NCBI GenBank assembly: GCA_046563655.1
Contig: CM102286.1
Span: forward strand, 10,788,001-10,852,000
Origin: Yuukianura sp. NJ FZ-2021
Lineage: Eukaryota
Direction: 5' to 3'
DNA length: 64,000 bases
The notes under the pieces are model-generated. The model saw only the letters and a program-made list of their open reading frames with translations. It was not told where the DNA came from and ran no database searches. Numbering within the stretch: the stretch's first letter is position 1; every line of letters starts with the position of its first letter. A program made the position numbers and the translations under genes. Positions 2,570 to 60,675 of this stretch are shown one piece after another.

Positions 2570-4683
2570 ATGACGAGACAACATGTCCTCACTCGCCTAC
2601 TATGTATTTTTTTAACATCGCAATTTCCAGTGCGGGCCGAAGAGTTAGCTCAAAGTTTAATTGAAAACAATTCAACCAACTTCCTGTTCCAGGAAAGAGC
2701 TGATGACCTTCCGATCAGTCCCTCAGAAACTACTGTCTGGGGCCCTGGACTCAGACCTCATGAAATTGTACTGCCTGCGAGATACTTTTATGTTGAACTC
2801 AAAGGAAGAGGTGGTAAGAAGTAAGCAAGTTAATAAGTGTATTGTGCATCTTTAGCATAAGCGGATACTAAATTATTAATCGGTTTAAAGGTTAAAACGA
2901 AAAGACGTTGACAAGGATGAGCTTCGCGTACGAATCGATTGTTCGGGTGATCGCGAAGTGTGGACTCAAGTGCTGAGTGCCGGAGACGAGGATGAAGCTG
3001 TCTTTGTCGTCAGATACAAAACGCTTCAGTCGTGTCACAACGAATTTCGAATCATCATTACGTATTCTCATATGCATTTGGCCCATTCCCCAATACTGAT
3101 TAGCGGTACAATTCTAGCAATTCTTATAGATGGATATGGAGAATTGAATATTTGGAAACTGAAATGAAATTGTCTTTTACAGCTCCAGTACTTCCAGATG
3201 CTTGTGACTGTCCACAAGTACCAGCAAAGGAGTGGCTTGAAAGTGTCGGATGTCCAAAAAGTAACGAACAGTTGACGAGTGACCTTCGACCATTTCCGAA
3301 TGGTTCGGTCGATTTCGACAAAGTTGTTGAAGCCGTGTTAAACAAATTCCATCGACCCAGTTCTCACAGTTTTTGTCACTATGCAATCGTGAAGAATGTC
3401 GTGAGTTTTTTAATTGACTAAATACAATTACTAAATTCTTCGGAAAAGAAATCGTTTGAGTAATCGTTAACATTTTATATTGCTTACTTTGCTTAATCAG
3501 GTGTATCGAAAATGTTATGGTGAGCATACCGGTTTCCATATTTTTCCGGATGCAATTCTTCTGTTCCTCACTCGCCGGATGTGGATGCCCGATGTAGAAT
3601 TTATTATGAACCTTGGCGACTGGCCACTGGTGAAAACCGAAAAGTCGAAAACCAACGACCTTCTACTACCAATTTTTTCTTGGTGTAAAACTGCTCAAAA
3701 CCTGGACATTATAGTTCCAACTTATGAACTTACGGAGGCATCTCTAGAAATGATGGGCAGGTACACTCGCAATAATTTATACAAATTATTGATCTCCAAA
3801 ATGATTGACGACTTCACAAGTTTGTTGCAGAGTATCTGTTGACATGGTCAGTGTTCAAGGAAACGTTGGAGTTCCATGGAACGACAAAAAGGCAAAACTG
3901 TTTTGGCGTGGACGAGATTCTCGTGAAGAACGATTACACTTGATTCGGATCGGTCGAGCGCATTCGGGCCTTTTTAATGTTTCCTTAACCAATTTTTTCT
4001 TCTTCCGAGATAGAATGGACGAATTCGGTCCAAAAGAACCTCAAGTCTCTTTCTTTACTTTTTTCAACGTAAGTTATCATTTTTTGACAGATTGAAGTCG
4101 ATTTTTGCTTACAAAGGTGTTGTGATTGACTAATTTCAGTACAAATATCAATTGAACATCGATGGCACAGTGGCCTCGTATAGGTTTCCATTTTTGCTGG
4201 CAGGGGACGCTGTTGTGTTCAAAGTAGATTCAGCCTACATTGAACACTTCTACCGTGACCTTTCGCCGCTGACTCACTACATTCCAGTCAAAGACAACAT
4301 GGACGACCTAGTGGACAAGGTCAAGTGGGCTCTCGAGAATGACGAAATGGTCAAGGCCATTGGGGACAACGGGAGAAAATATGCCAGAGAGAATCTGATG
4401 CCATTAGACGTTTTTTGTTACCATGCATCTGCGTATACCGTAAGCGAGAAACAACAGATAAACTGGCTAGATTTTCCTGCAAACACTGATTCGGTTTTGG
4501 AGTGCATTAATCGCTTAATATTAAATAATCAAAACTATTTCTTAGGAATGGGCACAAAGACTAAAGAAACCCATTTTTGTTCGACCTGGAATGGAAGTCG
4601 TTAAGCAAGCCAAAGTGAGCCATGGAAGAATATGCGACTGTCATGCACATCTAACTGATGCCAAGGGGAAACTGGAGCTTTAA
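2570..4683 (+). CDS. POGLUT2: KDEL-motif-containing protein / protein O-glucosyltransferase 2-3 family (filamin-like + GT90/CAP10 domain); about 7 coding exons
   Basis: Signal-peptide-like N-terminus; motifs [41 protein letters not shown] and [18 protein letters not shown]. Approximate exons 2570-2820, 2891-3105, 3183-3401, 3501-3760, 3830-4068, 4140-4439, 4547-4683; ends GKLEL-stop. Confidence 0.9.
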
Positions 4684-6224: not shown

Positions 6225-7527
6225 CCGTATTTTCCCAAATAGTACACCTGGTGTACTAATTTTGTTTTCGACTTCTGGGGGTGGTGTACTATTAGGGACC
6301 TGGTGTATTATTAGAGACGGTGTACTAATTAATTTTTTAAGAATGAGGATTTTATTCTTAGCTAAAACGTTTAGGAATCAGGAGAAAATAATTTCTAAAT
6401 TACTAAAAACTACTCCACTTCGTTTTCAGAATCCGTATCCACAGTGTCCAGCTCGTATTCTTCTTCTCCACTTGAGTCAATTAACACTTTGGTAACACAA
6501 TTAAGCTTTGTTCCGTCACCTTTGGCCGCTAGAACAAGCGTTGCGTGTGCCTTCTCATTTCTAGTCGACTTTAGTTGAACAGTTTTAGATCCAGTTGGAG
6601 CAATTGTTGTGTTGCTCAGCATGTCGAACCACAAACTGATTTCATCCATTGCAATAATTTGGGACGGTTCGATCTTACGCTGGCGTACGACTTTACTTAT
6701 AAATGTAGCCAAATCTGCAACTTTTGAAAACAATTGATCCGGATCCTTTTGTCCTACTGTAGTCCTCCGTCTTAATGATAGTGAGTGTCTTTTGAGAAAA
6801 CGATCCAGCCAGCCCAAACTTGCGACGAACTTCGTTCTGTTTCCGTTATCCAATGTTGGGAAAATCCTCTTCGCCTGCTCTTGAATCGAACGCCGTGAGA
6901 CTCTTAACGATTTGTTTCGTTGTTCCATAATCCAGTAAAAGAGTGAATCATTCAACTCAGGTATCAATCGTTTCCGTCCAGCGCCGATCAACCTTTTGTG
7001 TTTGATCTTGGATGATTTCACGTTTGACACTGTAAACAAAATACTGTTTCAGTATGAATGTAATAATTAGGAAAAAATATTTTATTCACAATAAATTACT
7101 CACCTAAATCATTTTCCTTTCTAATCCATGTCCGAATACTCTGTCGATCAATGTTGTATTCTTTAGCAGCTGCCGCAATTGATTTATCCTTGGCCAATTT
7201 CACCACTTTCAATTTGAACTCCAGGTCAAATGATCTTTTTTTGTTGGGAGACATTTTAAAGTAAGAATACGAATTTTAAGTAAAACAATTTGGAGAGAAG
7301 TAACGTGGGGCCAAACACAACAAAGGAAGAGCTATAATAGTAGCTCAGCTAACTGCTCCGGGTGGTATACTCCTAATGCTACATTCCCAAAGACCCTGGT
7401 GTACTATTAGAGACCTGGTGTACTATTTGGGACGGTGTACTAATTAATTTTTCGACTTCTGGGGGTGGTGTACTATTAGGGACCTGGTGTACTATTTAGG
7501 TATGGTGTACTATTAGGGAAAATACGG
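6225..7527 (-). mobile_element. pogo/Tigger-family transposon, internally deleted
   Basis: TIR CCGTATTTTCCC.AATAGTACACC on both ends; TA TSD at 6223-6224 and 7528-7529; repeated GGTGTACTA subterminal motifs; contains a transposase. Confidence 0.9.
6410..7254 (-). pseudogene. pogo transposase (N-terminal HTH + CENP-B HTH + truncated DDE); exons 7254-7104 and 7029-6410
   Basis: MSPNKKRSFDLEFKLKVV...IRTW, then ASLGWLDRFLKRHSLSLRRRTT and IIAMDE...AAKGDGTKL. It then jumps straight to an acidic tail, so most of the DDE domain is missing. The phase-1 GT-AG intron joins in frame. Confidence 0.8.
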
Positions 7528-11734: not shown

Positions 11735-14700
11735 TTAAGCCATCATAGTACAGGCAGTACTAGTCCCAGCAGCAAGGGGGTTTCGAAAGTGAGCATAAAC
11801 GCCATCTCGTGTTGACACCATGAGGCATTTCCAGCAAAAATGGGTTTTGCATTTGAAGCATTCCATATGATTGCACCCGCCATTTTTCTGGAAACCGGAA
11901 TATTTCTTTGGTTAACTTTTCCCGGTAATTCTTGAAGAATTTGCAAGTTAGCATTAAATTGTATTGCTATTACCTCAATATCCGCTTTGCAATTTGGGCA
12001 TTTCTTGCAGTTTGTCGCCAAAAATGCTTTTGTCAGAATCGATTCCACTCCTTTTTCTAATTTCGTCTTCCCGTATCTCTGTTCCAACTTTTGCTTAGTT
12101 GCTGCAGACCCTTGGGCATATTGTGTCAGGATTATTTGACGTTCCGTTTCATTTTCAAATTCGTCACAAGGATTGTTGCCATGGTAGGGATCGTTGCAGT
12201 TAGTGCAAAAAGTGAGGTCACAGAGGTCACAGTGACCACGCGTTGGCTCCGAGAAGTCTAGTTCGATGAATGCATCACAACCTGGGGTAGGACAATGTAC
12301 CTAAAACATAGAAACACTCGGAGTAAAAGAAAACATATAGAAAAACAAAACAAGATTTTTGAAAAAAATACATTTTACATTCCATCAAAAAAAGGTTTTG
12401 GAAAACATTCTTGCAGTTTTTTTTATTCCTTCTTGCAATTATAACTGTAAGAAGTAATGGAAAAACATCGGAATCAAGTTCCAATGCATAAACGAAACGA
12501 AACGAAACCATTTCCGCGGCCGTTTCCGCATTTGCTGGAAACGATATAAAAGTTCCGTTTCCGTTTCGTCTCCAGTGTGGTGGAACCGTGTCTGCTTCTA
12601 GATGAAGCTGGAAACGCAGTTCCTCAAATTTTTAAATTTCCGGCATTTTTTTGAATTTTTCATAGTAAATTTTGTATAAAAAATGAATTAAAAATGCAGA
12701 ACTCATGTTGAAATTTTGTGCTTATGTGCTCTTCGCGGTTATTTCTCACTAATCTCTGACAAATGAAGAAACCACAAAAGCTGCCCCCATCACTCCGACC
12801 CTATTTTGCTCAACATATTCCTACATATCGGTTTCAGTTTTGTTCCGTTTCGTCCCGGTGCCGTTTTCTTTCTATTTCCCAATTTATAAACTTGTTTCGT
12901 TCCAATTTCAAAAACTCGGTTCCAGTGCCGTTTCCGTTCCCTAAACGGAACGGAACGGACCTTGAACAACCTTAGAATTTTTTTTAGGAAATGAATTTTA
13001 TATTTTATGAAAAAAAAAGTTCAGAGAACTTTTATTTGTAGTTTTTGTTCTTACGATATCAGATTGGGTAGCCAAGAAGTTCTCCAGCAAAATCCGGTCA
13101 TAACTTTTGTACAATTCCGGGCCGACCAGGGTCTTGATCAAAGCAGGACTGATTTCCATGTCACAGTTTTCACCCAAGCATAGGATGGAGTTGACTTGGC
13201 GTTCATTAATTAACACTGTAAACCAATCAGTTAAGCAACTTTTGCAATTAACATGACAGCAGTCAAACATGACACAAGCGGATGGGTTGTTCTCCATGTA
13301 GCAAATGTTGCATAAATCGGTTGCTTCTCCAGGCAAATTTACGACGTTAGCGCTCCCTCTCCGTGTTGTTGCTTGCTGAATTCGATTTGAACCAGCAGCG
13401 GCCGCGTTCAGTCGGAACTTGTTCCTGAGTTCCACTTGCCGCTCTTCCTTCTTTTGTGCCTCTCCACAGTACAGCAATTTCCCGTTTGATAATTGTGACA
13501 AATGCATTACTCTAATGGCAGTTTGGGCGTGGAGGGGATTTTCAAAACAAACGAATCCGAAGCCTTTCGAAATCCCAGCTTCGTTTTTCATCACTACACA
13601 TGACAGAATCTTGCCAAAATGAGTAAAGGCATGGAGAAGTTCACGGTCGGTGTCGATGAATCCCCGAATGTTTTTGACGTAAATGTTATTTTTCCAGCGG
13701 CGCAGACTTGTGGAAGCTGCTGCAGTGCCACGAGGCACTAAATTTGAATCACGTTTGAAATTAGAATTAGAAGCCATGGCGCGTTTGAAATTAGAAGCCA
13801 TAGCAACTCCTCTCCGAGCAACAGTTGTATTGGCGTTCTGTTCAGAATTGTTGTTGTGTGATATTATTGTCACGGGTGAGGCTCGCACTGTAGTTCCCAA
13901 CGCCAAATTTGAATGTACAGGCGTACGAGCGTAAGTTGGCACAATCAACCCATTGTGTATAGCACGAGGCGATGAAAATTTTGAGCTTCGGTGCTGTTCC
14001 TTAGTCAAATGTTTGGCCACGTAGAGTCGCTTACCATTGGAAAGTGGGTGACCGTCCAGTTTTGCGAAAGCCTGCAAAGCATCTTCTGGATTTTGAAAAC
14101 AAACGAATCCAAATCCTTTTAGAATGCCATTCTCGTCACGCTCAAGTTTTGCTGAGGTAATCGTTCCATAAGGACGGAACAAATCGATCAAGTCACTATT
14201 TTCAGAAAACGCGCCAAGGAAGTTCTTGACGTATAAGTTTGTAAAAGGGCGGGCCTTTTCACGCTCTTCAGCAGTTTGATACTGCTGTACTTTGACCTCT
14301 TGGCCTTTGTATATCAAGCCACTGCACTTTTCAATTGCTTCGCCAACTGATGATGGATTTTCAAAATGAACAATTCCGTATCCAAGCGATTTTCGGGAAA
14401 TTTTGTCCCGAGCAATACAACTAGATTTGATGTTGCCAAATTTCTGGAATATGTATATCAAACTGTCTTCCCCCACAGAAGGGTGTAGGTTGCTTACGTA
14501 AATGGCGGTGCATTTTCGAGGTGCGGTTGAATTGGAAGATAAGGTCATGCCTTGTAAGCGTCTTGAACAGGTTGGAATTTCGTCATCTTGGACGACCACG
14601 ACAGGACTAAAAAGAAACCCGAAAAAAAAGACTAATGTGAGTTCAGAAATTTTTTCAAAAAAAAATATTTTTGTTTCTTCACAAATTGATGGTTTATTGT

Positions 14701-15095
14701 TTGTTCAAGAGTAGGAATTTCCCAGCGGAAGTCAATTTTTCACTTTTTTCTATTTTTTTTAAAGTTTGAAAGAAATTCTAAAAAAAAAAAAAAGAAAAAT
14801 TTTGAGATTTTTTTTTGAAATTTTGAAAAAAAATCGAAAACAGTTGGAAGACTGGTCTCCGCTGGCAAATCTTAGTACACTAAAAACCATCAAGTTATGA
14901 AAAAGCAACAAAAAAAAATTTTTTTTTTTGTCAAAAGTATTAACCCCACGATAGTAATTTTTAAGCCAACTCCGAAATTAAGAGATTCACGGTAACAACA
15001 TTTGACAGACTTGAAAAGTACATGATAATTACTCACCGAGTTGAAGTTGATCTTGGTCCAGAATTTGACACTGTCGGGGGAAAATGCTTTGTCAT
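11735..15095 (-). CDS. 3xRRM (PABP-like) + RING1-IBR-RING2 (RNF14/ARA54-like) E3 ubiquitin ligase; exons 15095-15037, 14606-13055, 12300-11974, 11887-11735
   Basis: RRM motifs [33 protein letters not shown] and [15 protein letters not shown]...[19 protein letters not shown]1 [51 protein letters not shown]2 [30 protein letters not shown]. All three introns are GT-AG and splice in frame. Confidence 0.88.
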
Positions 15096-16313
15096 TTTAT
15101 TAACACAAAAGATTTGGAGTGGTTGGTATAATTTGTGTTAAAATGCCGTTTTTTTGAAAAGTTTTTTCAGAAAACTGCCAGTTTTCAAGTGGTTAAAATG
15201 AAACGGATTGTGAGATTTCACTAATTTTTGGACACAGTTAAAGAAAAAGAGGGTGCAGATTTAGTTAAGTCAGGAGTTATATATAAAAGTCAAAGTTTGG
15301 TAGTAAAGCAAACCTAATCATTATTGGAATAACACACTTACACAAAATGTTAAACTATCCTTCCATCTTTCCTCTGTTTGATTAAATATGTTATAAATCC
15401 TACAATATGTAGCACTGTAGCAGCTTTATTAGTTGTTCTGTTCAGTTCATGCCATTGCCAACGAACCACACGAACTCTTATTCTGAAATTATTATGGCAG
15501 TTTAAAGAACAAATGAGTCATCGATACAAAACTTCACTTAGAGTAACTCCATGCAACTGCAGTCAGTCTGCTGATTCTGTTGTCAAGATGTTGAATTTGA
15601 GATTGTGATAAGCGTTACAATCTCCATCTCATTTACCATCATTATCCCTAGTCATTTGTGTGTTTGCTTGATTGTAAAGCGCCAAAATGACACGAAAACC
15701 GTTAAAATTTTTTTCACTATAAAAATCTAGGTTCTGCTCCTTTGAAAGCTTAAACCACTACTGGGAATCCTATCGCGACTCCCAAGGATTTTAAATGGAT
15801 TTTCTAAAAATAAAGATCAACAACTTTTGTAATCTTATTGTTGCCATTTCCAGTGACGCAGAACACTTGACGCTATTTACGTTAGCAGTTCTCCAGCATC
15901 TCAACAACAACAACTTTGGAATTGTCAATTGCTAGATCTGACGAGAGGATTTCTCACCATTACTACCAAAACGATTATGAAATTTTTCGGGCATTGTTAA
16001 ATCTTCAACTTGTATTTTACATCACCCGATTATAAATCTCAAGAAATTCTGAGTTTGACATCGAAAATGTCCGAATGCATAAAATATTTTCCAGGTCAAA
16101 TTCAGAATTTAGGTTAGGTAGCAACTGGCGAAGTGCCTCAATTAATTGAATCATTTTACCGGAATAAGTTGAACACTGAGATTAAAACCACCTAAATACT
16201 TATGCAGAGAAACAAAACCAAAACTTTAGCTTAGTAGTTTCAAATTTATGCTTTTTTTTTATTTAAGTAAGTCACACTGACGTTGAGATTAGCGTTGTGC
16301 TGCCATTCCAAAT

Positions 16314-17715
16314 TCAATGAATCGAAAGACGCTCAAGCTGTGAAAGCGAAGCGCCTTCGCAGCATTGTTCAACTGTCCAACCTACGGCTAATTTGTCCAA
16401 ATTTCGAAGAGTTTCCATAGCTTTGTTGATAAACGCATTCAAAACTTCCCGCATTTCTGTTGTTTCCTTTCCCAGCTCGTGTGAAATATTGTTGTACGGA
16501 TTCACAGGATCCACGACCAAAGGCATTCCCGACCTCATCTGCATTCTTGCTACAGAAAAGAGTTTTACCAAAGAGTTATTACGGTAAAATACACATGGTT
16601 GATTTGCAAACGTGCCAAAAATATTTTGTTCCCATTGCTGTAATGTTAACAAAGTCAATATTTCAGTTCCTTTCGTTATTACGTAAATATTTATTTACGT
16701 ACTCATGCCCTTTGGTGTTAAGTTCGTGAATATCTCGACCTTTTTCAGTAAATATTATATTTACTTAAGTATTTCGATGGTAGTAAATATTTTTGGCACG
16801 TCTGTTTATTAGTGACTGACAACTTACCATAGGCACCTTCAGCGTCGAAAGTACTAAACCAAATTTGCATGGAATCCATTGTCGTCATGGCAACCAGGAA
16901 ACGCTTAAATCCAGTTAACAAGTGTTTTTTCTTTTTGCGCATGTTGGCATGAATTGCAATGAGTTCGATCATTGTTGACCTCCCGGGAATGTATACGTCT
17001 TTTTTTAATAGGAACTTGCTTGTTCCAGTACTTGGCGAGTCGAATGACATCGTCAACAAATTCGGAATATCCAAGAACGAAGCTGACCGCGTACTCCTGC
17101 AAACTGGAACTGAATACCCCGCCTGATTCTTTGGACGAAGGTCTTCGGCTTCCTTCAATCGCCTTAATAGTATGGTAGATTTGTGCTTCTCTGCCTTTTC
17201 TTGACCCCACTTCAAAGTTCACGGCAGGAAGCAAATCGAACTTGTAAATTCCAATTTCAAACTGTAATCCAAACTTTGTTGCTCTTCCGTAGACAAAATC
17301 CGGCCCAAATGTCTTCGTTCCTTCTACTGCGAACTTTTGGTCAAAAAAGTTCAAAAATACTGTAAACGGCGGAAGTTGGTTGTTCAGAAAAACAACCAAA
17401 TCGTAGTCAGGGTTAAATGCATCTCCTAGTCCAGTATTTTTTCCCATACTTCCTCCAATCAATGTCCTGGCAATTTTGAACTCTTCGAACTGCTGCAAAT
17501 ACTTGAATATTTTGTCAGCAAGTTGGTTTCCTGTTCGCCTGTACTCCGGGCTCGGGGTTAGCTGTTTTCGAACAAACGTTTCCAAACGCCTATCCATTTC
17601 ATTGATTATGTCAACCCGAAATGAGCTTTGTCTCCGTAAATACTCCCTGGAATTAACAAAAAAAAAACAACAAATTATATGTTACTCATTTTTATAAATT
17701 TATTGTTTCTTACAT
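16314..17715 (-). CDS. 2'-5'-oligoadenylate synthetase (OAS)-like nucleotidyltransferase; one-base frameshift in A7 run at 17000-17006 (assembly error or pseudogenisation)
   Basis: GGSMGKNT, DYDLVVFL, FDLLPA, VIRLAKYW, STMIELIAIH, GFKRFL and PLVVDPVNPYNNI occur in OAS order. Model: ATG split as AT(17715-17714)|G(17646); exon to 16828; intron 16827-16550; last exon 16549-16314. Confidence 0.85.
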
Positions 17716-22465: not shown

Positions 22466-23551
22466 CTGTCATCCCTTTTGTACAGGGTGGGCTCGCAATG
22501 TTCTAGTACAACAAAGCAAATGTTCTTTAGAAAGTACAAAGTAAACCGAGAAACGACGCTTACTTGAGATATTGTCGAGCATGCTAAATGGAATCTGACG
22601 GCAGTGGGGTGGTTCTAAGATTCTCCCTTTAGCCCTTTTTCGTAGAGCTAACGTCGCTAATTATGTAGTGAAGGTTAAATTTTTTTTTTCAATACATTAG
22701 TAGACGTTGATGCTTATATCATCTACGTCACTGTCGACGCTAGGTGCAAATTCGAAAATTTTGTGGTCTTTTCAGTGTCAGTGAAACGTGTTCCTCGAAT
22801 CCGCATTATTTTTCGTTTCTTGCGTGAAATAATGCAATTAAGTCATTGGAATCTAATCAGTTACTTACCACAGTGGTAAGTAAGTTACCACAGTATAATT
22901 AGTAATGTAAGCAGGTTAGAGTAGAGAGTCTCTCTCTACTCTAAACGAAATACTAAGACATGAGACCTTGTCATAATCTGTTGGTTTGATTTGAAACAGC
23001 AGCCTTTTAAAAAAAAACTTAGGACGACCGCCCGCCCGTGTCCTTCATACTGGTAAAATCATCATAACGTGAATAGAATAGGAAAAGGAATTTCTGTCTT
23101 AACACCTCTGTTTTTCCTGCAATACTGCACTACTTTTCCATTTCTTTCTATTCCAAATCAAATTCTAAACCGCAAAAAGGTAAACGGCAAGTCCAACTTG
23201 AGTCAAGTGTGAAGTGTCAGTCTCAGTGAAGTGTTTTGTTTTGCAAGCAATGAAAGTGTCAGGAACTCGTGACATTGAAATAAAAGCTACCTTTTAGAAC
23301 AATTCCCACAGAAGTAATCCCAACAAAAAGTGGTCGCTACAAATTTTATAGTGAGTTTTGGTAATTCAACTACAATATATTAGATCTTCAAGTTCACAGT
23401 TTTCCTATGTACTTATCATAACAGTTTGAAATTCAAACTTTGAATTAATCTACTACTTACTATCTATCTCTCTATCCTCCAGACTCACTGCAACGACGGG
23501 TCACTCTGCTCCTGTGCGGCCTCCTGAAAGTGTTAACACATTCTTGAGAGA

Positions 23552-25608
23552 ATGAGCGATATAGACGAAATCCGAAAACGGGGATCAGTGAATACCAAAG
23601 CCAAAAATAGAAAACCTACTGCTAACTCATCACCAGCTACAGGCTCTCATGGAAATGGAAATGGAACTCTGAACAAGTCGCAAAAGAAAGTCAAGAGGAG
23701 TAAGGAAAGCAGTGCTGGTGGTGGAATGAATAAACAATTGAAGAAGATATTTTTCCTTCTCATTGGATTGGGTTTCTTCGTAATTGTTTTCTGGAGTGTA
23801 ACCAGGGACAGACGTTCTGTTCCCCATCATAGTGTGAATTGGTGGGATGAAAACGTTTTCCTCAGATTCGGACTGCAGAAGAAGACATATGCTGTTATCA
23901 TCGATGCTGGATCGACTGGATCTCGAGTTCTTGCTTTTGAGTTCCATCAGGATCTTAGAGGTTGATTCGCCAATTTCATAGCATGAAACGTTTAATTGTT
24001 GATATTTTTGGTCTTCAGATAAAAACCTCAAACTGAAGGCTGAAGTGTTCGGAGAGGTCAAACCAGGTCTTTCAGCGTATGCGGATACACCAAGTGCCGC
24101 AGCGAAAAGTTTGGAACCACTCATTGAAACAGCTAAGAAATTTATTCCTCAAAGTGAATGGAGTTCAACGCCAATTACTTTGAAAGCCACAGCTGGACTG
24201 CGATTACTTTCTAAGGAAAAGGCAAATAATATATTGAAAGAGGTATGAATAGTAACATCGATCATCTAATCCAACACGAAATATTATTTTTGATTGTAAA
24301 GAAAGGAGACATTAATCCAGCAATTTATATTGTTTGAAGGTAACTGAATTAGTCGTGAAATCCGGATTTCATAATCCAGTGGGTGCCGTAGGAATTCTTG
24401 ATGCAGTAGACGAAGGCATATTCTCCTGGTTTACAGTGAACTTTTTACTAGGTCTGAATTCAAGGACATTTCAATTGAATATTATTAGATAAAAAACATT
24501 GTGTTTGTGTTATTAATAACTTCTTGTCCTTTGCTACGATTGAATTCATAGATAGGATTGGAGATTCTGTTGCAACAACCGTCGCTGCGTTGGATCTTGG
24601 AGGAGGCTCAACACAAATCACGCTAGCCACCAGCCCACATACGATTGATTTATACCCTAAAGAAAGTCTTGTGAATATCAGTTTGTTTCATCAGCCGGTC
24701 CCGATTTACACTCACAGGTACGATATTATTTTCTAACAAAAAATCTCGTCAAACCAAACCCGTCAAAATGACTGTCATTTTTCATAAAGCACATTAGTAT
24801 AACAAACAATAATTGTCATGTGATTTTTTAGTTATCTTGGTCTTGGACTGCAATCTGTTCGTAAAGCTGTGCTTGCCTTCAATCACAGCGATCCAGATTC
24901 GAAAGTATTGTCTAGTCCTTGCGTAAATCCGAAGGTGTCCAGGGAATGGACTCATGGTGGGATAACATACACCATCAAGTAAGAACAAATCTCTCTGACT
25001 TTTCGCTTCGCTTCTTATATCCAGTTACACACGATCTGACATTTTTACACACGATCTGACATCCTAGGGGTCTCCCAAATACCAAATTTCAAAAGGTCCA
25101 ATACGATGGATTTACGCGGAAGGAGCCTGTAGCAGATTGGGATGCATGCTACAAAATTATTGTCGATATCATCAAGGAAAAGAATCCACTCAAATCCAAA
25201 GACTTCAATCGCCAAGTCGTTGTATTCTCTTACTTTACAGAACGAGCAGCTGAAGCCGGTCTTGTAGGTAAGTCATGAATGAACTTCGTGATTTAAGTTG
25301 TTACTCAACTTCATAAGTTTTTGCAGATTCAATTATATATTTTTGATTTTTCATTTACACAAACAGATGCCATTGAGGGCGGGAAGCTGACGCTGAAACA
25401 TTATTTTGATGCTGGCAAACAAGCTTGTAACACTGTGAACGTCGACCTCCCTCTTTTATGTCTGGATCTTACATACATGGGAGCTTTACTTCACAATGGA
25501 TATGGATTGGCAAATCACACACCTATCTTAGCACTCAAAAAGGTTCATGGTCACGAGCTAAGTTGGGGCCTAGGAGCTGCGTATCATATCCTACAGAACG
25601 GTGCTTAG
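23552..25608 (+). CDS. Ectonucleoside triphosphate diphosphohydrolase 5/6 family (GDA1/CD39), type II membrane protein; about 7 exons
   Basis: N-terminal TM segment; apyrase regions IIDAGSTGSRV, LKATAGLRLL, DEGIFSWFTVNFLL, LDLGGGSTQI, SYLGLGL and ELSWGLGAA. Confidence 0.92.
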
Positions 25609-39049: not shown

Positions 39050-39717
39050 TAATGTGTTAGATATGTAGCTATTCTGTTAAATTTCGGTAAATAAGAATTC
39101 TTATTATGCCAGGAAAATAAAAATAATTATCAATTTTTTCGTAACATCAACTTCCGTTAGCGAGGAATACTTTGATGCTCAAGTATGAACTGGCTACCAA
39201 AAATGAATTTTCGTTGAAGAAAGTGAGTTGCGTTTTTACTATGTCCAATATCTGTAGCTTACTACACTTCATACGAACTTTCTACCTACCTTGAACAGTA
39301 TTCCAAATTAAATAATAATTTATTGTGTACTTTATGTTTAATAATTTAAATAAAATGTTTAAAGAAGTATTCGGAAGATCGCGGAGAAAGCGGTAGCTGA
39401 AAAAAAAAGGAGAGGGAGAGACTTTTTCTTTGGTTTTCTATTTCCACCCTCCTCTACTCAAAACCAAGATGCAATTTCGCTTCCACTTTTAGTTTCAAAT
39501 CAGAAAACGACTGGGAGGGTTGTTCATGAGCCTCTGTTGTTCAAAGTTTTCGACATTAGGGAGTTTGTGTAGTTTAAATAACTTCAGTGAACGCACTAAC
39601 ATTAAATTACATTGAAATAAATAAAATAACCCAGTTTAAGTTAACACCTAATGTGGTAAAATTTATGTGTTCAGTAACATAAAATTCCTTATTTGAACTT
39701 GGCGTCCCAAAAGCAAA

Positions 39718-40593
39718 ATGGAGGAAGAACTGAAGTGTCAAGTGTGTAAACAATTGTTTAGTAATCCCGTTCTGCTTCCCTGCTACCACTCCATCTGTCT
39801 CAATTGTGCCGTCCAAATCCAGCAGCCAATCTCCTCTGGATCTGGTAACAATGGATTCCACACGCATGCGTCCCAAACCAACTTCCACGGTCAGTCCCAC
39901 CATATTGTGGTCACTACAGCCACGGTCCACCATCAAAGCCACCATCACTCAGACAGTAGCATTAGTAGTGGGGCCGGTGGGTCTGACTCTTCCGGTACTG
40001 AAGATTCGGACAAAATTTCCATTTTGAGTGAAACTGATTCCGGTGTGGTCGTTTGCAGTGCCAGCAGACCGCCATCTAGCTACCTCGCCACAGCAAATAT
40101 GCATGGTCTCCTGTTCCCACCGATCCAGGCGACGGTCCTGTCCTTGTCATGTCCAGTGTGTCACAAGTTGGTGTACTTTGACGAAGCTGGAGCTCAGAAC
40201 TTGCCAAAGTACCGAGTCATGCAGAACATTGTGGACAAGTACGTCGAATCCAGGAACCTCGGAACGAAGTGTCAACTGTGTGAGAAGAATCCGAGACCTG
40301 CGACGACAATGTGCGAACAATGTGAAATCTTTTACTGTGACAAATGTCGTGAGAGTTGTCATCCCACCAGAGGGCCCTTTGCCAAGCACTCCTTACTTAC
40401 TCCCCAAGAGGGCAAAGTTCAACTAAAGTTGAAAACGGGTCCCTTGGAGTATCGTTGTCCGGATCATCCCACACTGCTTCTCAACATGTACTGTATCGTC
40501 TGCAAAGTACCGGTTTGTGGCGGCTGTCTTCAAGAAGGAAAGCATTCGGGTCATGACGTTCAGCCGATTCAGACGATGAGCAAGGCACAAAAG
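39718..40593 (+). CDS. TRIM9: E3 ubiquitin ligase TRIM9/TRIM67 family, first coding exon (RING, B-box1, B-box2); remaining exons not found in window
   Basis: MEEELKCQVC..PVLLPCYHSICLNCA; DSDKISILSETDSGVV insert; CQLCE..CEQCEIFYCDKCRESCHP.RGP.AKH; B-box2; ends SKAQK|GT at 40594. Confidence 0.93.
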
Positions 40594-43451
40594 GTGAAAC
40601 AACTTTGTATTTAAGAATTTCTCATTTTTGTTTACAATTTCTGTTAGGTACATATTTTATAAGTACCTAAAATTTTATGTTTGAGTTTTAGGTAAGCATT
40701 ATCTTTTCGTTTAAGGTTCAAGGGCTACTGTTTGAAGGGTTTAACTTCAGTAGTGGTTTAATTTCAAATCTTTCTTCGTTCACCTGCCCCTATTGTTGTC
40801 ATTAAATGGGAAGGGACATGGACCCTTAAGGGTCTCTAATATCTATACTTATCAAAATACAAAATACCGAATACACACGCATACACACGCTCCCCTTCGT
40901 TCTAAATACAAGTGAACCGTGATTTTTTTTTTTTTTTGTAAACTCACCTGGTAGTACCGTTTCGTTTTTTTAAGCCGAACGGATTCCATACCTGTCGGTT
41001 TTGTTGTGCACCCATGAAATAGTGTTCTGTATAATTCAAAATCCGAATTCTTCCAAACATGAAGCATTTCAATTTTGTAATCCATTCAGCTTGATAGTTT
41101 GACCTACTCAATACTCAAACACGCAGTTCAGCGCGACCTTTCGACCTGCCCTGAGCACTGCTTTTTGAATTCTAAAAGCCTCGCTTTGACTTTATCCATT
41201 CTGTCGCTTCATCCTTTTCAAATCATCCATCCATCACTTCCGCAATTGGAAGTGACTTAAATCCTTTCCATGGAACCTGAAACCATTGTCAGCCTAATTA
41301 CAATGAGAATAGAAGACCAAGGAGCTTTCGGAGTGACAGATTGCCTTCACTAGAACGAAAAGGAAATTGGAACGAATTTTGAAACTGGGTTTCACACCCT
41401 GGGACACTCCATTCCAACGGCGGCAGAATTCAAATCTAAACTCCTTTTGTTCCTAATTGCTCCTTGGATAAGTGGGAAATTTAAATTGAGCAATGGATCT
41501 TCCGTCTTATCCTTTCTCAGTTTACATTTTATGGCTCTACGTTTCCTACTTGATTTGGGAGATTCACGTCTAAGATTTGTTGATACACAACTCCTCCCTA
41601 GGATTCCAAGGGAGCCACCATATGGTGGTGGTGGCTCAAAGGGCCCCACCAAGGGACCCCTATTCAGTTTTTATAGCCCATTGTCCATAGAACAGCATTC
41701 TTCTCTGCCGGGCTGTAGCCATCCGGCGCCAACTTCACCTCTGGAATTTCCTTTGTCCGAAACAAGGTTTTGGAAGCCTCATGAATGAAAGCGAACCAAA
41801 ATGAATAGAGTTCAACTTCACTAATAATCCAACGGACCCCTTCATCAAAAGGTGTTGGCTTCAAATTACGCCCATCCAAATTTTAAATTTTTTCGAATTA
41901 CCGCGCTACAGCACAGTCTCAAGGCTAAGCACTTCTGCACTTCTTGCAAAGAGTGAAAATGACGCTTTTGTCACTTTAAAGTGAAAGTTAAACTGAGAAG
42001 ATTTGAAATTTGACGTTTGTTTGATTAAGATATGGTTAGTGACCTTAACCTTAGAAAGTTGACCTTTGACCTCAGGGGTAGGTGTGTTTGCTATAATGAA
42101 GTGGAGGGGGAGTTTTTTGTTTTGCGTGTGCTGTTCCATTTGAATGAGTTGGAAGGAGTGTTGCTGGAAAGAGGAAGTGCATGTTGTTGTTCCTTTGTTT
42201 TGAACTTTGGGATGCTCGCCAAGTTTTCGTACCTCGCACTGCTTGTTTTTGTGATGATGGTTTGTCGTGTCTTGAACAATTGCTTTTTAAAACAAAACGT
42301 GTTCTGTTTGATTTTGAAAACGGAAGATTTTGCAAGTACTTGACATGAGTGGGAGAGATTTCGTTTGGCACTGATTGCAATTTTCATTAAAGTGGAACGC
42401 CAAGTGGAAGTCACTCGCCTGTCCTCTGGTTCATTTGATACACATCTTTAAACTGCCTATGCCTTGGCAAACTGACGTTTCAAATAATTCAAATTGTTTG
42501 CCCGGGCGCTAAAAATGGGGCGGCAAGTTACAAATTCTATTTTTAAAAGGCAGAATCTCACTTAAAAAAAATCAAAGTTTTTTAGGACCTCGTGGGTTTT
42601 GAATTCGCAAATTTTTTTTAAAAAATTTCAAAAAATTATTTAAAAAAAATTTTTTTTTATGTCGGTTGCTGTAAATGGTCTATTGAAATTTTTTACAATG
42701 GTTGCTAAGGTTGAGGATTCTTTGCTCCTTCCGCAGAAAGGCGCCCATTTTGAGTACCAGAATTGACAACAAAGCTACATTCATTCATTGAGGAGTCAAG
42801 TAAAGATGGAGTCAAATTCTAAGAAAAAACGCTAGAAATTTTTGTTTAGTTTCTAAGTGTCGTATTCTCCATGAAACTTTGGAACCAAACCAATTTAGAT
42901 TAAGTTGATGTCAAATTTGCCGCGAAAGAAAAAACAAACACAGCGCCCGCCATGTTTTGTTTTACGATTTTTAATAATTCATTTTTGTTTTAAAGGTTTC
43001 GCGTAATTTTACATTTTCTTATACTTAGTTTTTTTTTTTTTACATTTTACTTCCCAATTACGGAAGAGATCCTGTTCGTTTTTTTTTCTTTGGGAATTGC
43101 ACTGATGCAAATTTTACCGTTATGAGTCATTAAAATTCTATTTTAGACTCCCGGCTTTTAAAACGGCGAGTGTAGTTTAAGACTTTCTTAGAAAATCAAA
43201 ACCCATTCCTTGTTTACTTTCCAAGAAATTTCAATTCATTGCCTTTTTTTTTCAGCGTTTTAGTGTTCCAGTAAGGCTGTGCCTGATCAACTGGAATTTT
43301 AAAACAAGTAAATCTTATACACTTCTTGGAAATGATGTCACTTTCAATTTTGTTTGAAAAACTACTTTTTGAGACACGTTCCAAAAATGCACAAATTCAA
43401 AGTCCAAGATTCATAAAAAAAAACTCCGAACAGAAGTAGTGCCCTTTAAAC

Positions 43452-44160: not shown

Positions 44161-46980
44161 CCTTTAAACAATCCAAAAAATTCAATCTCAAATAGGGTGA
44201 AAGGTGACAAGAAAAGTTTTTCGAAATTGGAGAAAAATTGGAAAAATTCTTCCTTTCATTTTCGCTCCAGAAGCCGAGATCAAAAATGAATGTAAAAGTA
44301 AATTGCAACATTTGAAAGGGGCTAAACTGAGTTCCATTTGCTCCATTTTGTCACTTTGTGCGGGAAGAAACTGCTTTTTGAAGAAACTGAAAGACTGAAA
44401 ATGGAAATATAGAAGAGAGGTTGGATAGCGTAAGGAAATGGAGGATGTAAATTCAAATCCTGCCGCTCCCCTTCACTCGCTTAGGATCATTCTGTTTCCT
44501 GTACGAGAAGATGAACGTCGTCCATTTACTTCGTGTAAAGGGTTGTACACTTTCTTCTGTAAAGGGCGCTTAGTTTGAATTCATACAACCTGAGAAAGTT
44601 CGCTTCCTCGAGCGAATGACAAAGCGTCTGCCTGGGCTTTGCAGATAAGCCACTACTGCCAATTCTTCTCGCAACACGATTCTTCCCTACGCTTTATTTC
44701 CATACTTCGTCTAAAGCTCATGCATGCACGCTTTGGGTGCGGCGAATATCGGGTGAAGGGCGCGCCGAACTTTCATCTACCGAACTTTTAGCTACCGAAC
44801 TCTCAGCTACCGAACTTTCAGCAGGAAATGCTTCGAAATCTTGCCGCCATGATTCAACTTATTTATAGTGCTGCCAAATTTCAAGCGATCGTTGCACAGC
44901 ATATAGGGTGCGGAAATACTCGAACCGAAACCAGTCACCGCATCAATACACGGTTTGAAAGAGATATCAAATCTTGAACGCAAAATCGTTTTCCGTCGAA
45001 CCAATTCCCATTTTCAGTTTTCAGATCCAAGCTTCATAACACCAAAACATTTTCTGGTTCGACGAAAAAAAAGTGAGCCGCTTCGCAGGTTCACATGAGT
45101 GGTGTAAGGCAGGAAATGGTAAAAGAGTATTCGATTGAGTATTCCAGCCGTTCACTGCCGCCCTGTCAACCTTCGAAAGGGCAATTCACTCCCTTCAATC
45201 TCGCATTTACATGGAACTTATTTCCCATTCTGGACGAAGAGTCCCTGGAAAACGATTTTGCAAAGAATAGGATCCTTTCCTTCCAGTCACTTACACTCCC
45301 AGCAGAGTGTCTGTAGTTACTCCCTTCAACTCCTTATTGTGTAACTGGAGCAACGGATTACGACTTTTGGGATTTCAAAAAACTTTTCTATGTTCAATCC
45401 CTGTTGGACGGGTCAAAACCTTATGGTTCCGAAAAGTCTCACTCTCTCGACAGCTGCTTTTATTTTCAAACCTACAAAAAATCTCTTTTCAATTTTTTTT
45501 TTTGAAAATCCGCTTCCTCTGCAAAATTTGAAATGTAGGGTTTACAGGAAATTTCATGTTACTGCGTGTTCAAATTGTCGTTCAAAACAAAGTTTTCAAC
45601 AGCTTGCAAAATTTTATTACTTGCAGAAACAACAACAGCAACATTTTATTACCAGCTGTAATGCAACTCTTTGCTCATAATTCTTTTGAGAAAATATTTT
45701 TTTCATAAAGTGTTCATTTCCACATTAGCGTCTGACATGAACAAGTTACAAAAACTTTTAACCTTTTGACCTAATCGAATTTAACTTTTGACCCCGGAGT
45801 TTTTTTTCTTCTTTACTTCGAATTTGGAAACTTTTTTTTTGCCTCCCGTGGCTTTTCCTGGATTTCACTTTTATTTTGACAAGAAAACTGAGGTTTTTGG
45901 CTGAAGCTGTCAAATGCCCAACTTTCGTTTCTGGCTCCTTCTTCGTGAGTAGTAAACTGAAGAGTCGTAAGCTGTCATGACATGACATGCAATTCCTGTG
46001 CAGCATCGTTAATAATTACAACATGCAGCACACACCTTTAACTACTTCTGGAAAACTAGGATAGGATTTTAGAAAAAAGCGTTAGGTTGTGGAGGGGACT
46101 GATATCGCTGGTTCACGTAAGAGACACTCAATTGTACAGTGTTGTTCAACACCAAACACTTTTGACAAGAACGCCCAACTATAAGTTGTAGGAGGATGAT
46201 TAACGACTGACACTTTTACACTAGTTTACACAAAATCTGACTTACGCATCCCTTGAGTAGACTTTGGAGTAACTAATTGTAAATAGCAGATGAACTAGGA
46301 GGGAATGTCACCCTGTAGATTACCTCGTCTATCGTTTGTTTACTTGTTCTAATCAATACATAGCGTATACGCACAGGCATGGGCATCGACTTTGTTGTGT
46401 AATCCACCGCTTGTAACAGTCATCTCACGTTTCATGGAACATAACTTTCCTGTCTGACATGAAATTGACATTAGGTTTCTGTTAAGCACACATAATGAAC
46501 TGTTCACCTGTTCAAAATTTTGAACATTTTTCAAGATTTCAAAAAATAAAAATGTTGAAATGTATTAACTCCACTTGCTATTGCCGACGTCCTTCAATGT
46601 TTTGATGAAGATTTAAGTTGAGTTTGTATAAGAATATATTATAAATCTTCAGAAGTTCTTAAAATTAAATTTTCCTTTGATTTTTCGAAGCTTACTTTGA
46701 AGATGATTTGTTCGATTTACGCATTATGTAGCCAAATCCAATTTATTTGTCAGCTGTTAGGTAGATTTCAGGCGAAAAATTCCATGCAAGGAAGCAAATT
46801 TTAATTTAATTTTATTAAATTTTTATTAAATATAAAATTAAATATTAAATATAAAAATATATAAAAATTAAATATGTTGAGTTGGACAATGCACAAATTC
46901 AGGACTTTTTGGAAAATAATCACGAAACAATTTCATGACATCAAAGTTATTCGTATACTTCAAGGACTTTAATCGAATTT

Positions 46981-47283
46981 GACAACATTTTTGGCGACAA
47001 ACTGCAAGAAATGACCAAATTGCAAGGCGAATATTGATGAAATGGCAACACAAATTTATGCTCGCCGGCAACTTCTTTAAAAATTAATACCGATAAAAAT
47101 TAACCAACAAATTTTTCCGGTGTTCAGAAAAATGGCCGGTGCTCCCATATGCAATGCCAACCCGAGACGGCGTGTATACTCACTTTCGAAACCCCATTGC
47201 TGCTAGGACTATTACTGCTGGCACTGTGATGGGTTAACTATGATACTCCACTGCAACGTTGACTTCTCCAACTAAGATTAGTG
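46981..47283 (+). pseudogene. Degenerate duplicate of the 3' end of the RRM-RBR gene (RING2 region, intron and 3' UTR)
   Basis: CATTTTTGGCGACAAACTGCAAGAAATGACCAAATTGCAA...CAGAAAAATGGC...CTCACTTTCGAAACCCC aligns to the reverse complement of about 12030-11695; Cys TGC is changed to TGA, the splice donor is lost and there is an internal deletion. Confidence 0.85.
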
Positions 47284-47397
47284 TTAGTTAATGTATTAAT
47301 TAGTTATAATGAGTTAATTTAATTAACATATGCCGCAAATGTATGCAAAAGAGATCATTCAACTTATTCAACATTCTTTCGTTAACCTATATGAAAC

Positions 47398-52022: not shown

Positions 52023-53409
52023 AATCGTAAGAGTCTGACATTAACCAAGCTAACTAGAAGCATCGAAGTCGAATTTAGCCACATATTAAAACGCATATGC
52101 TCATCAACTTTTTAGTTGCAAAACCTGAAGGCTTTTTCACATGCTAACATATAAAAGGGTAAATTTTAACTTACCTTAAGAAATTTCGCTAATTAAACTG
52201 CTCAAATGAAAACACGAACTTTTGATATAAAACGCTGACCTAGAATTAAACCAAACGTCTGAAAATTCTGATATTAAAATTGAAATTTAATTAAAAAAGT
52301 GGACCAAATACTAAAGGTACTCCACACATGTCGTTCTGAAAATGAAACTAAAAGTAATATTGTTATCTCAGCGAGTTGTGCATAACATAAGTACTGATAA
52401 AATTTACCAAACGAGATTAGAAATCATGGCCAATGTGTAAAATTAACCTAGTGGGCAACAAACGTTTTAGGACAATATTTGATCAAAGTGACACGGCAAC
52501 TTTATTTGGTGAAATATGAAGCATGAAGACTGGAGTCCGTTTTCTGAACAACAAAATGCACACAACAAAATATTTTGTCCTTCCCAAGGGCGTTAGACAA
52601 ACCCCGTAAGAAGGTAAAGTCGGTGCGTTTTGGCTGAAATTTTTACCAGTTGTTTGGATTGGCATGAAGATTATTTGGCCAAATTTTCAGGTTCGTATAA
52701 GAACTGCGTCACGAGAAATATGTGGTCAAAGGTTATCAAGCGACCCTATGATGACTCCCTGCAAGTAGGTTATCGCTTGACCGGATAATAAATTTGCAAC
52801 TGACTAACTGCAGTTGCATGAAGTTACGGTAAAGTGAAGTGTTGTATCAATGACTCATTTGTTCCTTATAGTAATTTCAGAAAAGCGTGTGGTAGGTTGG
52901 CAATGGCAAGAACAGAACAGGACAAAGTATAAAGTCGCCATTTATTTTAGCATGTATAGTAGCATATCCGAGATCAAACAGAGGAACAATGGGAGGGTAG
53001 CTGCTCATTTTGTATAAGTGTGACATTCCACTAAGATTAGATTTGCTGTATTAACCAAACTTTGACCTTTGGATATTTTGCGGACTTAACGAAATCAGCA
53101 CCCAGTCTTTCATGAATCCTTTTGAAATCACTTCTGAAATGAATTCGTTTCATTTGAACCACTAGACTGGCAGTTCACTGAAACAACTGTTCAGAAAACG
53201 GAATTTTAATATGCATTATTCGGTTATCGTGGTTACTAAATTTAACGATTACTGTTTATTAGACGAATACCACACGTGCTTAATGTGTATAAAATAAGTT
53301 AAATAGAAGAGAGTATAGGAAGGTGATATTATTTACTTTTTACTTTTGAAAAATTGATTTGCTTAGCGTAAATTTTTTTTCTTGGCCCTACCATTGTTAA
53401 ATTCTTTTG

Positions 53410-59405: not shown

Positions 59406-60675
59406 TGTTCTTCAGAATGTGTTGAGGGTAACCCTAACTAGAGCACAACACGGACTCCCTCTCTAATGTATGAGTTCGTCCGCTTCCAGTCTAACCTGGC
59501 GCCGTGCCCTTGAACCCTATCGGTCTAGCTAGGGACCCCCATTCGCTGACTACTCGCGATTGTAAAGCATTGCTTTAAAATGAACCTTAAAACGGGCTAC
59601 GCCCTCACCTCCCCCGCAGTAACTATGATCATCGCACCGGGGTTTTCGCCGTGGGAGGTGGGTTCCTTCCCGGTGCTCACATAGTTACCTTCGCGGCAAT
59701 GACGGCAACAGACGTGTTGGTTAAGTCTTTGAACCCCAAAATATTCTATATTAACTTTAGGAATAAATCGGACGCTTCTGTGACTTGTGTTTTCGACTTT
59801 TGGGCCCTGTAACTTTGTTGTCTTTAGTCGTAAATACCAACATATATACATTTTCTGAATCAGGACGTCATGCCCTTTCCAACGATATGCTACTTGCATG
59901 GGGTCGTCATAGGATGACATGGTGACCTTTGACCCCCCGTAACCCGCAACCCCTTGTTTCTAGGGGACTGAAAATTTGCAGAAATGATCCCACTATTGAC
60001 CCTAACAACTGGTTAAAATTTCATTCGAATCGCACCGGCGAAGATTTAGATAGGGTTTTGTGCCATCTCCTTTTGTGCTTACCGTTGCTCCCTATTCCGT
60101 AATATCCGACGACTTATACAGATTAAAGGATTTAAATTATAATAATTTTCTTTGGAGTTTTTGGGTGCTGACATTTCCACTTTGCTTGGAGAATCTTTTT
60201 GTTCCAAAGTTGAGATTTGTCCTTGCAATTTAAATTATCAAAGAAGGCAGGATTTGTCTTTTGCCAAAGACAAATTGTTGTTTTGGTTTTGTGGATTTTG
60301 AGATCTCGCCTTAGGTTGTAGGTTGCTGAAAAGAAGTTGAAAGTTTTTGGTTTGTGGTAATGGGTCTTTGCTTCCAAATAACAGTTTCCTCCAATTCTAC
60401 TTCTTTGTTCAACGAGTGGCAAATTCATGGTTTTTGCACAAGTAACGAAAAAGAAAGGGAAGAGCCTCCTAGTCTGATCTTCTTAAATTGAGAAAGTTTT
60501 GTTGAGCGTCTCAATCTCACTTTCTCCTTTGTTACTAAAACTTTGTAAATAGATCCACAGCCGAAAATTTTGGAAGACAAAGATTATATAATCATTTATT
60601 ATTTTATTTATATTATTAAATTTAAGTAATTTTTGTAACAAGGCAACAGAAGGAATACAACTATTCACCTTCCTA

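Follow-up and report, generated by a model that had tools for sequence, protein, structure and literature searches.

The 64,000-nucleotide stretch of DNA analysed here, called the window throughout, covers positions 10,788,001 to 10,852,000 of contig CM102286.1 in the genome assembly of Yuukianura sp. NJ FZ-2021 (GCA_046563655.1). On its minus strand, at 15095..11735, it contains a gene predicted to encode three RNA recognition motifs (RRMs) resembling those of poly(A)-binding proteins (PABPs), fused to the RING1-IBR-Rcat core of a RING-between-RING (RBR) ubiquitin ligase. An earlier note on this DNA had proposed such a chimera, and all the motifs that it named were recovered in minus-strand frames where it had located them. 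In our four-exon model, the coding sequence of 2091 nucleotides (nt) stays in frame across three predicted GT-AG introns with canonical splice sites, contains neither internal stops nor frameshifts and yields a protein of 696 amino acids (aa). The model thus has three splice junctions and not four, as had been counted before.

Exon 2 (13055..14606, minus strand like all exons and domains of this gene; 1552 nt, acceptor TTTTTAG, donor GTAAGA) encodes an N-terminal stretch, RRMa, RRMb, a spacer, RRMc, a linker, RING1 and the beginning of the IBR region, in agreement with the earlier claim that the three RRMs and RING1 share one intron-free exon of 1.55 kb. RRMc and RING1 lie within a single uninterrupted open frame of 568 codons (12998..14704), and the IBR and the Rcat-like motif lie in two shorter open frames downstream on the same strand. 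Exon 3 (11974..12300, donor GTAATA) corresponds to residues 538-646 and carries the IBR, a helical linker and the first cysteine pair of the Rcat domain; exon 4 (11735..11887) supplies residues 647-696 with the Rcat core and the TAA stop codon. Exon 2 has no in-frame ATG upstream of the methionine codon at 14548. The residues preceding this internal methionine are conserved in L001, an orthologous locus on a metagenome contig that is described below (DDEIPTCSR in the window, DDGQRPTCSR in L001), which supports the existence of a coding exon further upstream. A plausible prediction for it is putative exon 1 at 15037..15095, which comprises 59 nt with the start codon at 15095, ends in the donor GTGAGT and joins exon 2 in frame in phase 2; the peptide encoded by this exon has no counterpart in L001. 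In intron 2 (12301-13054), short repeats resembling GGAAACGG occur together with a single weak inverted repeat; we draw no conclusion from them.

Domains were assigned with Pfam on the products of single exons, with cut-offs of 24.3 bits for IBR, 27 bits for IBR_1 and 27.3 bits for zf-RING_2. The exon 2 product contains three RRM_1 domains (E 6.2e-42), of which RRMa occupies residues 53-131 (14273..14509; domain envelope and Pfam RRM_1), RRMb residues 142-221 (14003..14242; RNP2 LYVKNF, RNP1 KGFGFVCF) and RRMc residues 326-405 (13451..13690; RNP2 IYVKNI, RNP1 KGFGFVCF). RRMb and RRMc have thus retained canonical RNP1 and RNP2 motifs, and close variants of these are present in all five family members in our alignment. 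Between RRMb and RRMc lies a low-complexity spacer of 104 residues (222-325; 13691..14002), which contains the short tandem peptide repeat MASNFKR / MASNSNFKR. In the related protein P0128 from the mite Dinothrombium tinctorium, a fourth RRM is found in the place of this spacer. The spacer could therefore be the remains of an RRM, or the fourth RRM could be a gain in P0128.

RING1, with which the RBR half begins, follows directly in the same reading frame. For RING1 (residues 452-501, 13163..13312), the Pfam RING models remained below their cut-offs (zf-RING_2 18.2 bits), but the C3HC4 pattern of zinc ligands is complete (C-x2-C...C-x-H-x2-C-x2-C...C-x4-C), and the same Cys/His pattern is kept in L001, P0127, P0272 and P0273 in the alignment. 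The Pfam IBR model scored 34.9 bits on exon 3 (IBR at 12166-12297), identifying the IBR/BRcat domain of RBR ligases, and IBR_1 scored 28.1 bits on exon 4, identifying the Rcat domain. A long helical linker with the motif LEQRYGK (12016-12165) separates the IBR from the Rcat domain, in which Cys651 (11873-11875), the putative catalytic residue, stands in the motif GGCNHM, with FCWKC further along the core. This cysteine is invariant in all six aligned family proteins, P0273 included, and from what is known of other RBRs we take it to be the catalytic one. The predicted order of IBR and RING2 behind RING1, with LEQRYGK and an intact GGCNHM, was thereby confirmed, as was the presence of RRMs where RNF14 has its RWD domain: Pfam detected no RWD domain in exon 2 at E-values up to 0.1, with only about 50 residues available upstream of RRMa, and recognized the RWD domain of the control protein P0273 at 5e-19. 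An MLLE domain was likewise not matched by Pfam in any exon product; in the PABP P0141, used for comparison, it was found with an E-value of 2.7e-26.

A word-indexed protein search with exon 2 ranked P0004 first, a 530-aa protein with RRMs and a RING that is 44% identical across 94% of the query (E 3.7e-120); in a further alignment of exon 2 with P0004/L001, identity was 46%. A scan of metagenomes gave 351 pattern matches, from which five loci were confirmed, L001 being the contig that encodes P0004. It is the only RRM-RBR gene among the five; of the others, L002-L004 align with the RRMs alone, and in L005 the match is confined to 45 residues around the beginning of RING1. L001 has the same domain order as the window gene (RRMa-RRMb-spacer-RRMc-RING1, IBR, Rcat), and its two 3' introns interrupt the same codon positions, the counterpart of exon 3 lying at 1926-2252. 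The intron behind this IBR exon has a GC donor in L001 (GAG|GCAAGG, 2250-2260) and a GT donor in the window (GAG|GTAATA). Between the two proteins, identity amounts to 39% in RRMa, 54% in RRMb, 60% in RRMc, 66% in the RING1 region (residues 451-537), 56% in the IBR, 46% in the helical linker and 72% in the Rcat domain; in the spacer between RRMb and RRMc it is 23%, with 19 gap columns, and in the linker between RRMc and RING1 it is 32%. As identity tracks the domains, both the RRM half and the RBR half appear to be under constraint, and the profile is the one expected with purifying selection on both halves. At amino-acid identities of 23-72%, synonymous sites between the window gene and L001 are saturated.

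Proteins with this architecture are rare among the sequences that we inspected. A HMMER scan of 1.84 billion representative proteins returned 13786 matches at E <= 0.001, and among the best 150 of these, three contained a single match spanning RRMc into RING1, namely P0004, P0127 and P0128. P0127 from the mite Leptotrombidium deliense is listed by NCBI and UniProt under the automatic name 'RNF14-like isoform X2' and contains three RRMs, RING, IBR and IBR_1 according to Pfam; P0128 carries the automatic name 'polyadenylate-binding protein 7-like' and contains four RRMs, IBR and IBR_1. The other six proteins in the same Pfam scan had RRMs only. L. deliense possesses P0272 as a second RRM-RBR paralogue. 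Judged by the best 150 of the 13786 matches, the architecture is thus known in at least two trombidid mites, one organism represented by a metagenome and the present genome, and the family seems to be limited to a small number of arthropod lineages that have been little studied. The earlier note had not recognized the architecture, which is already present in public databases in the two mites, under their automatic names.

The derivation of the RRMs from a PABP, as suggested at the outset, is well supported by sequence comparison. Among the 120 matches listed for exon 2, the named ones other than P0004 and P0005 were almost all polyadenylate-binding proteins (E about 1e-62 to 1e-72), with about 30-40% identity between the RRM array and PABPs across the matched stretches. 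The best relative of known structure was yeast Pab1 (243 bits), and the solved two-RRM chains scored 91 bits for RRM1-2 of PABPC1, 68 for PUF60 and 60 for HuC. Position-specific profiles built from 222 four-RRM PABPs assigned RRMa to RRM2 (72.5 bits, next best 67.0), RRMb to RRM3 (88.3 bits vs 85.2 for RRM4) and RRMc also to RRM3 (99.2 vs 96.0 for RRM4). The profiles ranked in the same order for each of the five family members, the margins being 3-11 bits; in a held-out control with 100 genuine PABP RRMs, 25 for each position, every RRM went to its own position by at least 14.6 bits. A quick free tree of 84 RRMs that placed RRMb and RRMc among RRM3 sequences and outside the starred RRM4 clade was rejected: trees constrained to join the last RRM with RRM4 or with RRM3 had better log-likelihoods than the free tree (by 25.4 and 29.6, respectively), indicating that the free search had not converged, and both were accepted in the approximately unbiased test (p-AU about 0.82). 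Of the proposal that two of the RRMs are copies of RRM3, the best profile match of both RRMb and RRMc stands, with a lead of only about 3 bits and with RRM4 trees being equally acceptable; two RRM3 copies and a simple collinear derivation from RRM2-3-4 are both possible.

For the RBR, the comparison included P0273, a 447-aa protein of D. tinctorium with an RWD domain and an RBR, i.e. of the canonical RNF14 type. The RBR of the window protein is 60% identical to that of L001 (310 bits), 36-38% identical to those of the mite RRM-RBR proteins P0127, P0272 and P0128 (144-181 bits) and 37% identical to that of P0273 (156 bits), which is therefore its nearest relative lacking RRMs, as the earlier note's assignment to an RNF14 paralogue would lead one to expect. 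Other RBRs scored considerably lower (P0275 82, P0274 68, P0276 67 and P0277 47 bits, the first three being near full length). The RBR of P0127 matched P0273 with 39% identity (E 2.5e-43) and the four other RBRs with E-values of 5e-14 or worse. RING1 alone was closer to P0273 (43%, 78 bits) than to the mite RRM-RBR proteins (33-37%), and the alignment shows that the long linker between IBR and Rcat with an RYGK-type motif is common to the window protein and P0273. The solved structures of ARIH1/2, CUL9, parkin, RNF216 and HOIL-1 reached at most 50 bits with P0273 and at most 57 bits with P0127. In a careful tree, the five RRM-RBR proteins and P0273 grouped together against three other RBRs with support values of 87/91, although the group was not starred and the branches were long. 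Of the separate phylogenies that had been proposed for the two halves, the RBR tree therefore favours the expected relationship and the RRM trees fit both RRM3 and RRM4. In view of the few comparators and of the scores of the Rcat domain alone (see below), we call the RBR 'RNF14-like'; as the protein lacks the RWD domain that defines the RNF14 family, we do not count it among the members of that family.

Further features of the window surround the RRM-RBR gene. At 46962..47284 on the plus strand, and thus inverted, lies a dead partial duplicate of its 3' end, which takes in intron 3 and exon 4 together with the adjoining end of exon 3 and the beginning of the 3' untranslated region and is about 70-80% identical to the original. 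The copy has suffered a 43-nt deletion inside the Rcat sequence, has lost the GT of the donor site and reads GRCSHM in place of GGCNHM; it still contains intron 3 and arose by duplication at the DNA level. The gene directly upstream of the RRM-RBR gene, also on the minus strand (16314-17681), looks like a divergent nucleotidyltransferase of the 2'-5'-oligoadenylate synthetase (OAS) type. Its two collinear exons give weak Pfam matches to OAS1_C (E 0.014 and 0.0027) and phmmer matches among structures in the Protein Data Bank (PDB) to OAS2 (E 1.3e-5), bacterial CdnC (0.006) and OAS1 (0.05). A probably dispersed repeat of about 430 nt is present in two inverted copies with 74% identity: one, at 15138-15568, begins 43 bases ahead of the proposed start codon, and the other lies at a distance of 38 kb, at 52802-53209. 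Remnants of transposons were found on the minus strand at 57345-59411 (a 688-codon open frame with DDE_Tnp_4, 1.9e-14) and 6410-7048 (a Tc5-type helix-turn-helix, 6.2e-16). On the plus strand there are a TRIM-like exon with a RING and two B-boxes (39697-40614), an exon of a family 90 glycosyltransferase (4134-4604, 1e-32) and a weak start of a GDA1/CD39 gene (23537-23965). Rfam gave no match across the whole 64-kb window.

Several known systems share parts of this architecture. RNF14, a ligase recognised only recently, is described as an RBR enzyme whose N-terminus carries an RWD domain and whose catalytic cysteine, Cys417, lies in RING2; it clears translation factors from stalled ribosomes, being needed to degrade eEF1A trapped there, and its interaction with GCN1, by which its RWD domain would bring it to these ribosomes, depends on the RWD-binding region of GCN1 (10.1101/2022.03.21.485216). 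A review likewise presents the RWD domain as the special domain of ARA54/RNF14 (PMC3940038). The window protein resembles RNF14/ARA54 in its RING1-IBR-Rcat core with the conserved Rcat cysteine (RBR identity to the RWD-bearing mite protein 37% for the window protein and 39% for P0127). Its IBR and Rcat domains are joined by a long helical linker containing a motif of the (E/K)xxYGK type, which the RWD-bearing mite protein has as well. It lacks the RWD domain, the module linked to GCN1 binding in RNF14, and has three RRMs in its place. D. tinctorium has both the RRM-RBR protein P0128 and the canonical RWD-bearing P0273, so that the RRM form is an additional paralogue there. With PABPC and Pab1, the window protein shares tandem RRMs, PABPs being the best matches in every search, and its RRMa-RRMb junction resembles the RRM2-RRM3 junction of Xenopus PABP. 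It differs from PABPs in having three RRMs instead of four in fixed order, in the absence of MLLE, in the 104-residue spacer between RRMb and RRMc and in its C-terminal E3 ligase.

Ubiquitin ligases with RNA-binding domains of their own are also known from the RING type, such as CNOT4 with RING and RRM, MKRN1, MEX3 and TRIM25 (PMC5970261, 10.1101/516005, PMC7432607, PMC11445558, PMC12419896). They are RING scaffolds without a catalytic cysteine, whereas the window protein is an RBR that is predicted to form a thioester and carries a PABP-like RRM array. Among plant RBRs, the proteins of the Helicase (Helicase/Plant I) subfamily are described as combining the RBR supradomain with domains that probably act on RNA (PMC3904995, PMC2904391). 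There, a DEAD/DEAH helicase lies about 750 residues away from an RBR of another subfamily; in the window protein, the RRMs are directly fused to an RNF14-like RBR.

Taken together, we consider it likely that the locus is a functional, conserved gene for an RNA-binding RBR ligase with an RNF14-type core, in which the RWD domain was lost and three PABP-like RRMs stand in its place. In such a ligase, the RRMs would tether the enzyme directly to single-stranded, possibly A-rich, mRNA, and the Rcat cysteine would accept ubiquitin from an E2 bound to RING1 and hand it on to proteins on the same RNA or on a ribosome engaged in its translation. The ligase would then be recruited via RNA instead of the RWD-GCN1 route of RNF14, and RNA binding may also relieve the autoinhibition of the RBR or act as an activating input. 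As an RWD domain is absent, recruitment by GCN1 has probably been replaced by RNA binding. Poly(A) recognition is dominated by certain RRMs of PABP, and the RRMs of the window protein do not map to those, so that the RNA specificity is not readable from its sequence. In an AlphaFold2 model of P0127 (mean pLDDT 82.8), each of the three RRMs is folded with confidence, and in the RBR three helices follow one another on the way from the IBR to the Rcat domain; the predicted template modelling score (pTM) of 0.35 makes the relative placement of the domains uninformative. In a Foldseek search of the PDB with this model, the top matches listed were all multi-RRM proteins, and none informed on the RBR.

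Several observations weigh against this interpretation, and the first of them concern the RRMs. None of these is a clear member of one PABP position, given margins that fall short of those in the control, and even a PABP-like RRM is no guarantee of poly(A) specificity. The RNP1 motif of RRMa (LGYGIVHF) has the non-aromatic residue Ile at one of the aromatic positions, and RRMa is the domain least conserved in L001. Binding to proteins is also known for some RRMs, those of PABP among them. The RRMs might thus be protein-interaction or autoinhibitory modules, docking for example on partners of PABP, that aim the ligase at proteins and do not bind RNA. We regard this explanation as unlikely: the RNP2 and RNP1 motifs of RRMb and RRMc are canonical, with variants in five of the five family members, and these two are the best conserved RRMs between the window protein and L001.

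A second group of observations concerns the RBR. Exon 3 alone gave 55 candidates in the word-indexed protein search, none of them significant. Its matches to solved chains were weak (parkin IBR E 0.23, ARIH2 E 0.4), the top ones being spurious matches of Sen34 to the helical linker, and in the ESM Atlas it hit generic IBR clusters only, with no subfamily signal. No RNF14 chain was among the solved-structure matches to P0273 or P0127. The Rcat domain alone is as near to P0274 (61 bits) and P0275 (56 bits), which are not of the RNF14 type, as to P0273 (57 bits), and the comparators comprised one RWD-bearing protein, four unnamed RBRs and solved chains, leaving out RNF19, RNF144, RNF217, ANKIB1 and HOIP. 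The tree was compatible with monophyly of the RRM-RBR proteins to the exclusion of P0273 (p-AU 0.368) but did not establish it; if they are of one origin, the fusion would be older than the split from the trombidid mites and not recent. It is conceivable, therefore, that the RBR stems from another or a separate subfamily and that limited sampling accounts for its likeness to the RNF14-like protein of the mite, a view for which the single RWD-bearing comparator and the long branches of the tree with its support of 87/91 would also speak. We judge this to be even less probable than a protein-docking role of the RRMs, considering that the full RBR scores 156 bits with P0273 and at most 82 bits with the other RBRs, that RING1 is nearer to P0273 than to the mite RRM-RBR proteins, that the helical linker with its RYGK-type motif is shared with P0273 and that P0273 itself does not exceed 50 bits with ARIH1/2, CUL9, parkin, RNF216 or HOIL-1.

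Finally, the splice junctions and exon 1 are predictions, and the three sequencing runs listed for the stretch, all from one study, contain it as DNA. With exon 1 predicted and the dead fragment of the same gene, 32 kb away, testifying to local duplication and decay, the locus might be a chimera in decay, an artificial join in the assembly or two separate genes merged by gene prediction, and yield no fused protein, but this is very improbable in view of the 568-codon frame that joins RRMc to RING1, the same continuous frame in the metagenome contig and three mite proteins, the intact reading frame with canonical splice sites and the domain-specific conservation.

If the interpretation as an RNA-binding RNF14-like ligase is carried further, the family could constitute a GCN1-independent branch of the RNF14 pathway that reads mRNA via PABP-like RRMs and ubiquitinates proteins stuck or crosslinked on A-rich RNA or on the 3' ends of messages, in mRNA surveillance or antiviral RNA sensing. 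We offer this as a speculative extension with a rather small chance of being correct, and its antiviral part was prompted solely by the divergent OAS-like gene directly upstream on the same strand. If it were true, the RBR core of RNF14 would be a portable effector that was re-aimed in evolution by a swap of targeting domains.

The combination of RRMs and RBR is real, conserved, visible in databases and uncharacterised. Our literature searches of titles and abstracts found no paper on an RRM-RBR ligase, and the paper on the trombidid mite genomes (PMC6275457) nowhere mentions RNF14, polyadenylate, RBR or 'RNA recognition' in its main text. RNA-binding E3 ligases of the RING type are a known class; as far as our literature searches show, the present family would be the first RNA-binding ligase of the RBR class that is built with RRMs. 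The window gene would represent a natural RNF14-like paralogue in which the targeting domain was exchanged for RRMs of the PABP type, and thereby a natural experiment on the targeting of RBR ligases. The value of the RRM-RBR family may thus lie mainly in the lead that it provides for biochemistry and for studies on evolution by domain shuffling.

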